This document shows positions 30,803 to 31,424 of a stretch of DNA of 31,424 nt, one piece after another. Numbering within the stretch: position 1 is the stretch's first letter; every line of letters begins with the position of its first letter. Under the pieces are notes generated by a model that saw only the letters and a list, made by a program, of their open reading frames with translations, was not told where the DNA came from and did no database searches. A program made the translations under genes and the position numbers. The stretch comes from a virus (lineage: Duplodnaviria; Heunggongvirae; Uroviricota; Caudoviricetes). The stretch covers positions 1-31,424 of IMG/VR virus record IMGVR_UViG_2660238153_000004; one strand, written 5' to 3'.

Positions 30803-31408
30803 ATGTTATATGCATTTAAGCTAGGCAGAAAACTGCGTGGCGAGGAACCTTATTGCCCTGAAAAAGGCGGGAAAGGTGGCAGCTCTGATAAAAGCGCAAA
30901 GTATGCAGCAGAAGCTCAGAAGTATGCCGCAGACCTGCAAAATCAGCAGTGGCAGACGATCATGAAAAACCTTGCTCCGTTCACGCCGCTTGCGGAGCAG
31001 TATGTTAACCAGCTTCAGAATCTTTCCAGTTTAGAAGGTCAGGGGCAGGCACTTAATCAGTATTACAACTCTCAGCAGTATAAAGACCTTGCAGGTCAGG
31101 CTCGTTACCAGAGTCTTGCTGCTGCGGAGGCGACTGGTGGCCTTGGTTCGACAGCCACAAGCAATCAACTGGCTACGATCGCGCCGACACTCGGTCAGTC
31201 TTGGTTATCAAATCAGATGAGCAATTACAACAATCTGGCAAACGTTGGGCTTGGTGCGCTGCAAGGTCAGGCAAACGCCGGGCAGACGTACGCCAACAAC
31301 ATGAGCAGCATTGCACAGCAAAGCGCAGCACTTGCCGCTGCTAATGCCAATAAACCATTAGACTGGCCCCCTGAATCTCCAGACAACCAGTATCACTTAT
31401 TTAAGTGA
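30803..31408 (+). pseudogene. Ejection (injection) protein, P22 gp7-like, C-terminus replaced by an IS2 end
   Basis: N-terminal about 185 aa (MLYAFKLGRKLRGEEPYCPEKGGKGGSSDKSAKYAAEAQKYAADLQNQ...AAANANKP) resemble gp7; from 31359 the reading frame runs into IS-like terminal repeat sequence and stops at 31408. Confidence 0.6.
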
Positions 31409-31424
31409 TAGTCTTAATACTAGT
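31359..31424 (+). mobile_element. IS2 left terminal inverted repeat (partial; element continues beyond the window)
   Basis: TAGACTGGCCCCCTGAATCTCCAGACAACCAGTATCACTTATTTAAGTGATAGTCTTAATACTAGT matches my memory of the IS2 left end (CCAGACA...TATCACTTAA core); abrupt loss of gp7 homology at this point. Confidence 0.65.

Follow-up and report, generated by a model that had tools for sequence, protein, structure and literature searches.

The window analysed here, a stretch of 31,424 nt, ends in 66 bases (positions 31359–31424) which, judged by their sequence, are the left end of an isoform of the insertion sequence IS2 (IS3 family, IS2 group). They stand directly behind the 5′ part of a gene for a gp7-type DNA-ejection protein, of which 185 of 230 codons are kept, which confirms the proposal of an earlier note that IS2 truncates a gp7-like gene at this point. 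The arrangement is most likely the result of a simple insertion of IS2 (1331 bp) into gp7 of a P22/Sf6/HK620-like prophage residing at thrW, with a presumed loss of gp7 function. The window corresponds to the whole of the draft contig AZOG01000039.1 from the Shigella flexneri assembly GCA_000565505.1, and its AZOG accession is the first of a collection of 59 S. flexneri strains (PMC4374849).

The IS2 end and its junction with phage DNA

Positions 31359–31424 (plus strand) are identical at 66 of 66 positions to element positions 1–66 of a 1331-bp IS2 isoform of E. coli 720632, and they align from the first base with the annotated “insertion sequence:IS2A” of K-12 MG1655, to which they are identical at 63 of 66 positions, the three mismatches being at positions 32, 42 and 43. 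This segment comprises the left terminal inverted repeat characteristic of IS2 (about 41–42 nt, TAGACTGGCCCCCTGAATCTCCAGACAACC...) and the first part of the sequence that precedes orfA. The earlier note had assigned the segment to the left inverted repeat of IS2; both the element and the end, i.e., the one upstream of orfA, were named correctly, and the proposed boundaries are exact to the base. The 720632 element shares 1301 of 1331 positions with IS2A (97.7%), encodes an IS3-family transposase with a programmed frameshift from element position 92, and sits inside a fimbrial usher gene with a 5-bp duplication, GTTTT, on its flanks. IS2 is a known element of E. coli and Shigella, and the 720632 isoform has its orfAB transposase, terminal inverted repeats that match imperfectly, and a duplicated 5-bp target; of such a complete copy, the window holds no more than the first 66 nt, with three substitutions relative to K-12 IS2A. 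As a side observation, positions 31393–31410 (IS2 positions 35–52) form the palindrome TCACTTA-NN-TAAGTGA, with TT as the central dinucleotide in the window versus AA in K-12 IS2A, so that the window and K-12 versions are exact reverse complements of each other.

When the 66 nt alone were searched for, they were found at 19,086 places in 4,536 of the 5,426 complete E. coli genomes, on chromosomes as well as plasmids, with a median of three copies per genome and with 100% identity in 528 records (E = 1e-25), as is expected of a multi-copy mobile element. In the copies examined, the 66 nt form the outermost part of an element whose CDS, by annotation a transposase of the IS2/IS3 family with a programmed frameshift, begins 92 nt into the element; orfA/orfB transposase genes are present in all complete copies examined that have the same 66-nt end. 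In E. coli M8, for instance, the CDS adjoining an identical 66 nt is annotated as “IS3-like element IS2 family transposase”. Measured against the orfA start at position 92 of complete copies, the contig ends 26 nt short of this gene. Within the window, the first 30 nt of the segment occur once, and they occur in none of 100 shuffled sequences. The right end of IS2 reads ...TATAGGGGCAAATCCA, and no IS2 right inverted repeat was found in a sequence search of the 31,424 nt. From the orientation of the left end, orfA/orfB would be co-directional with the late genes of the phage.

The window end reads ...GCTAATGCCAATAAACCAT up to the junction (31358/31359) and TAGACTGGCCCCCTGAATCTCCAGACAACCAGTATCACTTATTTAAGTGATAGTCTTAATACTAGT from there on. 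To place the junction relative to known sequences, positions 30345–31424 were compared with the 5,426 complete E. coli genomes, a collection in which Shigella genomes are absent, and with 50,697 phage records. At a coverage of at least 80%, similarity ends at query position 1014, i.e., at window position 31358, in 816 genomes and 101 phage records, and the phages whose match stops there include Sf6, HK620, HF4s, IME10 and Sf101. Among the matches listed, a single one extends 3 nt past 31358, by chance, and with a query of 25 kb the end point was again 31358. The intact allele at this point reads AAACCAT followed by CAAGTC, the insertion point lying between the two. The junction of phage DNA with IS2 is present in none of the 5,426 complete E. 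coli genomes, and neither the exact left junction GCCAATAAACCATTAGACTGGCCCCCTG nor the right junction GGGGCAAATCCAACCATCAAGTC predicted for a simple insertion had a match in the contigs of species-representative genomes or of metagenomes.

The place where the contig stops can be understood from the nature of the element: IS2 is multi-copy in the genome, and the short-read assembler therefore halted 66 nt inside it. The other end of the contig offers a parallel. Positions 1–62, which adjoin proB, are the end of an IS1 element; complete E. coli genomes contain them at 76,367 places, in the context of an annotated IS1-family transposase next to proB, and 60 of the 62 positions are identical to the IS1 terminus. 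A draft contig that halts about 60 nt inside an IS element at both of its ends is the usual sign of an assembler breaking on repeats, and both ends of this contig are assembly breaks in multi-copy IS elements. That each break lies some 60 nt inside an IS argues that the junction at 31358/31359 is supported by reads.

These observations bear on the idea that the junction is an assembly artefact, in the form of a chimeric contig end, or that the 66 nt are a solo fragment of an IS2 end. Such an origin might be suspected from the position of the junction at the extreme tip of a draft contig, a place prone to errors, and from its lack of a counterpart in any of the independent sequences searched (complete E. 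coli genomes, species-representative genomes and metagenome contigs). The switch from phage to IS2 is, however, precise to the single base and coincides with the first position of IS2, a biologically meaningful terminus and not an arbitrary internal point. Moreover, graph assemblers normally stop a few tens of bases into a repeat, as this one did at the IS1 end, while a solo fragment of 66 nt in front of unique sequence would usually have been bridged by reads. Both an artefact and a solo fragment are thus highly improbable.

Truncation of the gp7-type gene

The gene that runs into IS2 (positions 30803–31358, plus strand) consists of codons 1–185 and the first base of codon 186 of a gp7-type DNA-ejection (DNA transfer) gene. 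Its product matches the Pfam profile PF25688 (P22_gp7) with E = 3.4e-111 and a score of 371 bits against a cut-off of 28, and the match covers positions 1–185 of the 230 in the profile, versus 1–230 in the intact relative from E. coli G3/10. Residues 1–185 are identical to Sf6 gp11 and to the protein of the G3/10 prophage, both of which go on after residue 185 with SSLQTAISGGTSGAIAGAGLASLLETSTPWGAGIGAGIGLL(G/S)SLF; the earlier reading that homology stops after ...AAANANKP agrees with this, since the protein diverges after K184 and P185. No PDB match was found when the protein was compared by sequence with solved structures.

The lost part is a C-terminus of 45 residues (profile positions 186–230), which is conserved, Gly/Ala-rich and the most hydrophobic part of the protein. 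In its place, the reading frame continues into IS2 as a fusion ORF of 201 aa (30803–31408, plus strand), made up of 185 gp7 residues and 16 IS2-encoded residues (LDWPPESPDNQYHLFK), with the stop codon TGA at 31406–31408. In an exact-sequence look-up, the fusion protein was found on its own contig only, which says little about strain specificity since other drafts could break before the stop codon and thereby give a different partial product.

Sf6 gp11 and HK620 gp7 have 230 aa and P22 gp7 has 229 aa (PMC8954989). Whether gp7 homologues in related phages end at the same point as the window gene was looked at specifically, and the homologues proved to be 229–230 aa long; together with a profile that runs 45 positions further, this argues that the end of the gene in the window is not a natural one. 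For the gene to end here naturally, the likeness of what follows to IS2 would have to be coincidental as well, despite a match of 66/66 at E = 1e-25. This reading is almost certainly wrong and was rejected on the grounds that PF25688 continues to position 230 and that the match to IS2 is perfect. By its sequence, the window gene is a truncated member of the P22_gp7 family and not a natural short form. Like P22 gp7, Sf6 gp11 and HK620 gp7, it belongs to PF25688, and it shares residues 1–185 with Sf6 gp11; in contrast to the other members of the family, it is without the last 45 residues and carries a foreign tail of 16 residues. The architecture of a full-length P22_gp7 protein, i.e., about 230 aa with a conserved hydrophobic C-terminus, is not found in its product.

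The surroundings of the gene are those of a P22-like phage. Upstream of it lie gp4-, gp10-, needle (gp26)- and gp14-like genes, in the order known from P22 and in agreement with the annotation of Sf6, and the Pfam families ahead of P22_gp7 come in the order P22_Tail-4, Phage_stabilise and DUF2824. The succession gp10, needle, gp14 and gp7 is common to the window and to P22-like phages. The tail needle gene (29644–30345) encodes 233 aa, which is also the length of P22 gp26, whereas the needle of Sf6 and of the G3/10 prophage has 282 aa and bears the annotation “tail needle knob protein” in G3/10. The DNA resembles that of the Sf6 and G3/10 relatives only from the gene after the needle onwards, and the needle gene looks, from these comparisons, like the product of a mosaic exchange.

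The prophage at thrW

At the left, the window carries proB and proA, followed by the tRNA-Thr(CGT) gene thrW (2721–2796, plus strand; ARAGORN), which is the left attachment site of the prophage. Similarity to phages starts at about position 2751, with a thrW-type integrase module as in mEp213/HK75, and the integrase ORF of this type lies at 2811–3971 on the minus strand. From there on, the rest of the window is prophage, collinear with HK620/Sf6-like Lederbergvirus genomes up to position 31358. Two further tRNA genes, tRNA-Asn(GTT) and tRNA-Thr(TGT), were located by ARAGORN inside the prophage at 17657–17812, upstream of the lysis and late region. The glucosylating serotype-converting phages of S. 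flexneri integrate at thrW. Any cargo genes at the right end of the prophage (gtr or oac type) would belong to a different contig. Sf6 itself uses argW as its integration site (PMC3630932). The use of thrW, together with the integrase of the mEp213/HK75 type, led to the rejection of “Sf6” as a name for this prophage.

The start of the portal gene had been regarded in the earlier note as possibly frameshifted and as a further sign of a decaying prophage. The shorter run is indeed there: in the stretch 23226–23261, five A residues (23244–23248) stand where Sf6 and HK620 have six, which shifts the portal frame after MAETLEK, and an ORF of 696 aa restarts at Met13 (23261). This A5 allele is present in one of 225 complete E. 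coli genomes with the same portal start, and it recurs unchanged in the isolated phage HF4s, whose genome record has a portal of 696 aa annotated. Since an isolated phage shares it, the A5 run counts for little as a sign of decay and may reflect either a rare but tolerated variant or a homopolymer sequencing error.

Genomes of S. flexneri contain IS copies by the hundred. SFL1520 contains 355 IS elements and cryptic prophages, and S. flexneri prophages are mostly degraded (PMC6424224). The IS-disrupted or cryptic serotype-converting prophages described there, such as the Sf6 remnants of SFL1520, are P22/Sf6-like with IS elements among their genes, as is the case here; in contrast to those remnants, the prophage in the window lies at thrW and is nearly complete as far as the window shows.

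Proposed insertion and its consequences

According to the favored explanation, IS2 would have transposed into codon 186 of gp7, between positions 31358 and 31359, with its left end facing the 5′ part of gp7 and its transposase genes lying along the late operon. The predicted target site is ACCAT (31354–31358), by analogy with the 720632 isoform and its 5-bp duplication; the far side of the element is outside the contig. In a simple insertion, this far side would consist of ACCAT and the gp7 remainder CAAGTCTTCAGACTGC..., so that the right end of IS2 would be followed by ACCAT-CAAGTCTTCAGACTGCAATTAGC... and then by homologues of gp20 and gp16. The other 1265 nt of IS2, the duplicated ACCAT and the last 45 codons of gp7 would all be expected on another contig, and so would gp20, gp16 and the tailspike gene, behind 1.3 kb of IS2.

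The contig stops inside the IS2 repeat, and for this reason the choice between an insertion and a rearrangement bounded by IS2 can only be inferred. In the latter case, IS2 would mark the edge of an IS-mediated deletion or inversion, with unrelated DNA on its far side, and the missing part of gp7 together with the virion genes downstream of it would be elsewhere or lost. Extensive IS-mediated rearrangement of S. flexneri genomes is documented, as is the frequent reduction of their serotype-converting prophages to remnants (PMC6424224), and the finding that the predicted junctions had no match in species-representative genomes or metagenome contigs would also fit a rearrangement. A further precedent comes from the IS2 copy of E. 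coli M8 (positions 3001–4331 of the M8 stretch examined), which has an identical left end of 66 nt but 5-bp flanks that do not match (CATCAG... to the left, ACCCGG... to the right); a copy without a target duplication shows that this isoform is involved in rearrangements and makes such an event realistic. Against this, no other break in collinearity is seen along the 28.6 kb from attL at thrW to the junction, over which the prophage appears complete, there is no sign of a rearrangement within the window, and when IS2 transposes, a simple insertion is what most often results. A rearrangement is thus unlikely.

What the truncation would mean for the phage can be judged by analogy with P22, in which gp7, gp16 and gp20 are needed for delivery of the DNA into the cell, and in which gp7 binds to procapsids via residues 21–154 (PMC8402733). 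The mutant 7-amH1375, with a stop at codon 155, is conditional lethal, yet its 154-residue fragment still enters virion-like particles; a partial function of such assembled fragments was left open by the authors (PMC8402733). The gene in the window resembles this mutant in encoding a C-terminally truncated gp7, although here the protein is cut 31 residues later, an IS element is the cause, and extra residues are added. By the P22 numbering, the 185-residue fragment includes the procapsid-binding region. Given that the assembly determinants of P22 gp7 reside in its N-terminal part, the truncated gp7 would probably still enter procapsids and be packaged. It would probably be unable, on the same analogy, to help build the conduit for DNA across the cell envelope. 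From P22 genetics we infer that particles made by the prophage would be non-infectious, which would lock the prophage in the chromosome.

A role for selection can also be imagined: the insertion might have been favored for grounding a prophage that is serotype-converting or useful in some other way, with its immunity and cargo genes still active, or the gp7 fragment might be partly functional or act against superinfection by P22-like phages. Either is very unlikely. The element is a known one and its insertion a well-known event in an IS-rich genome, the disruption of Shigella prophage genes by IS elements being well documented already. For annotation, the value of the finding is that gp7 in the window can be flagged as a pseudogene, and in this S. 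flexneri strain it is relevant for scoring the intactness of the prophage and for planning its induction.
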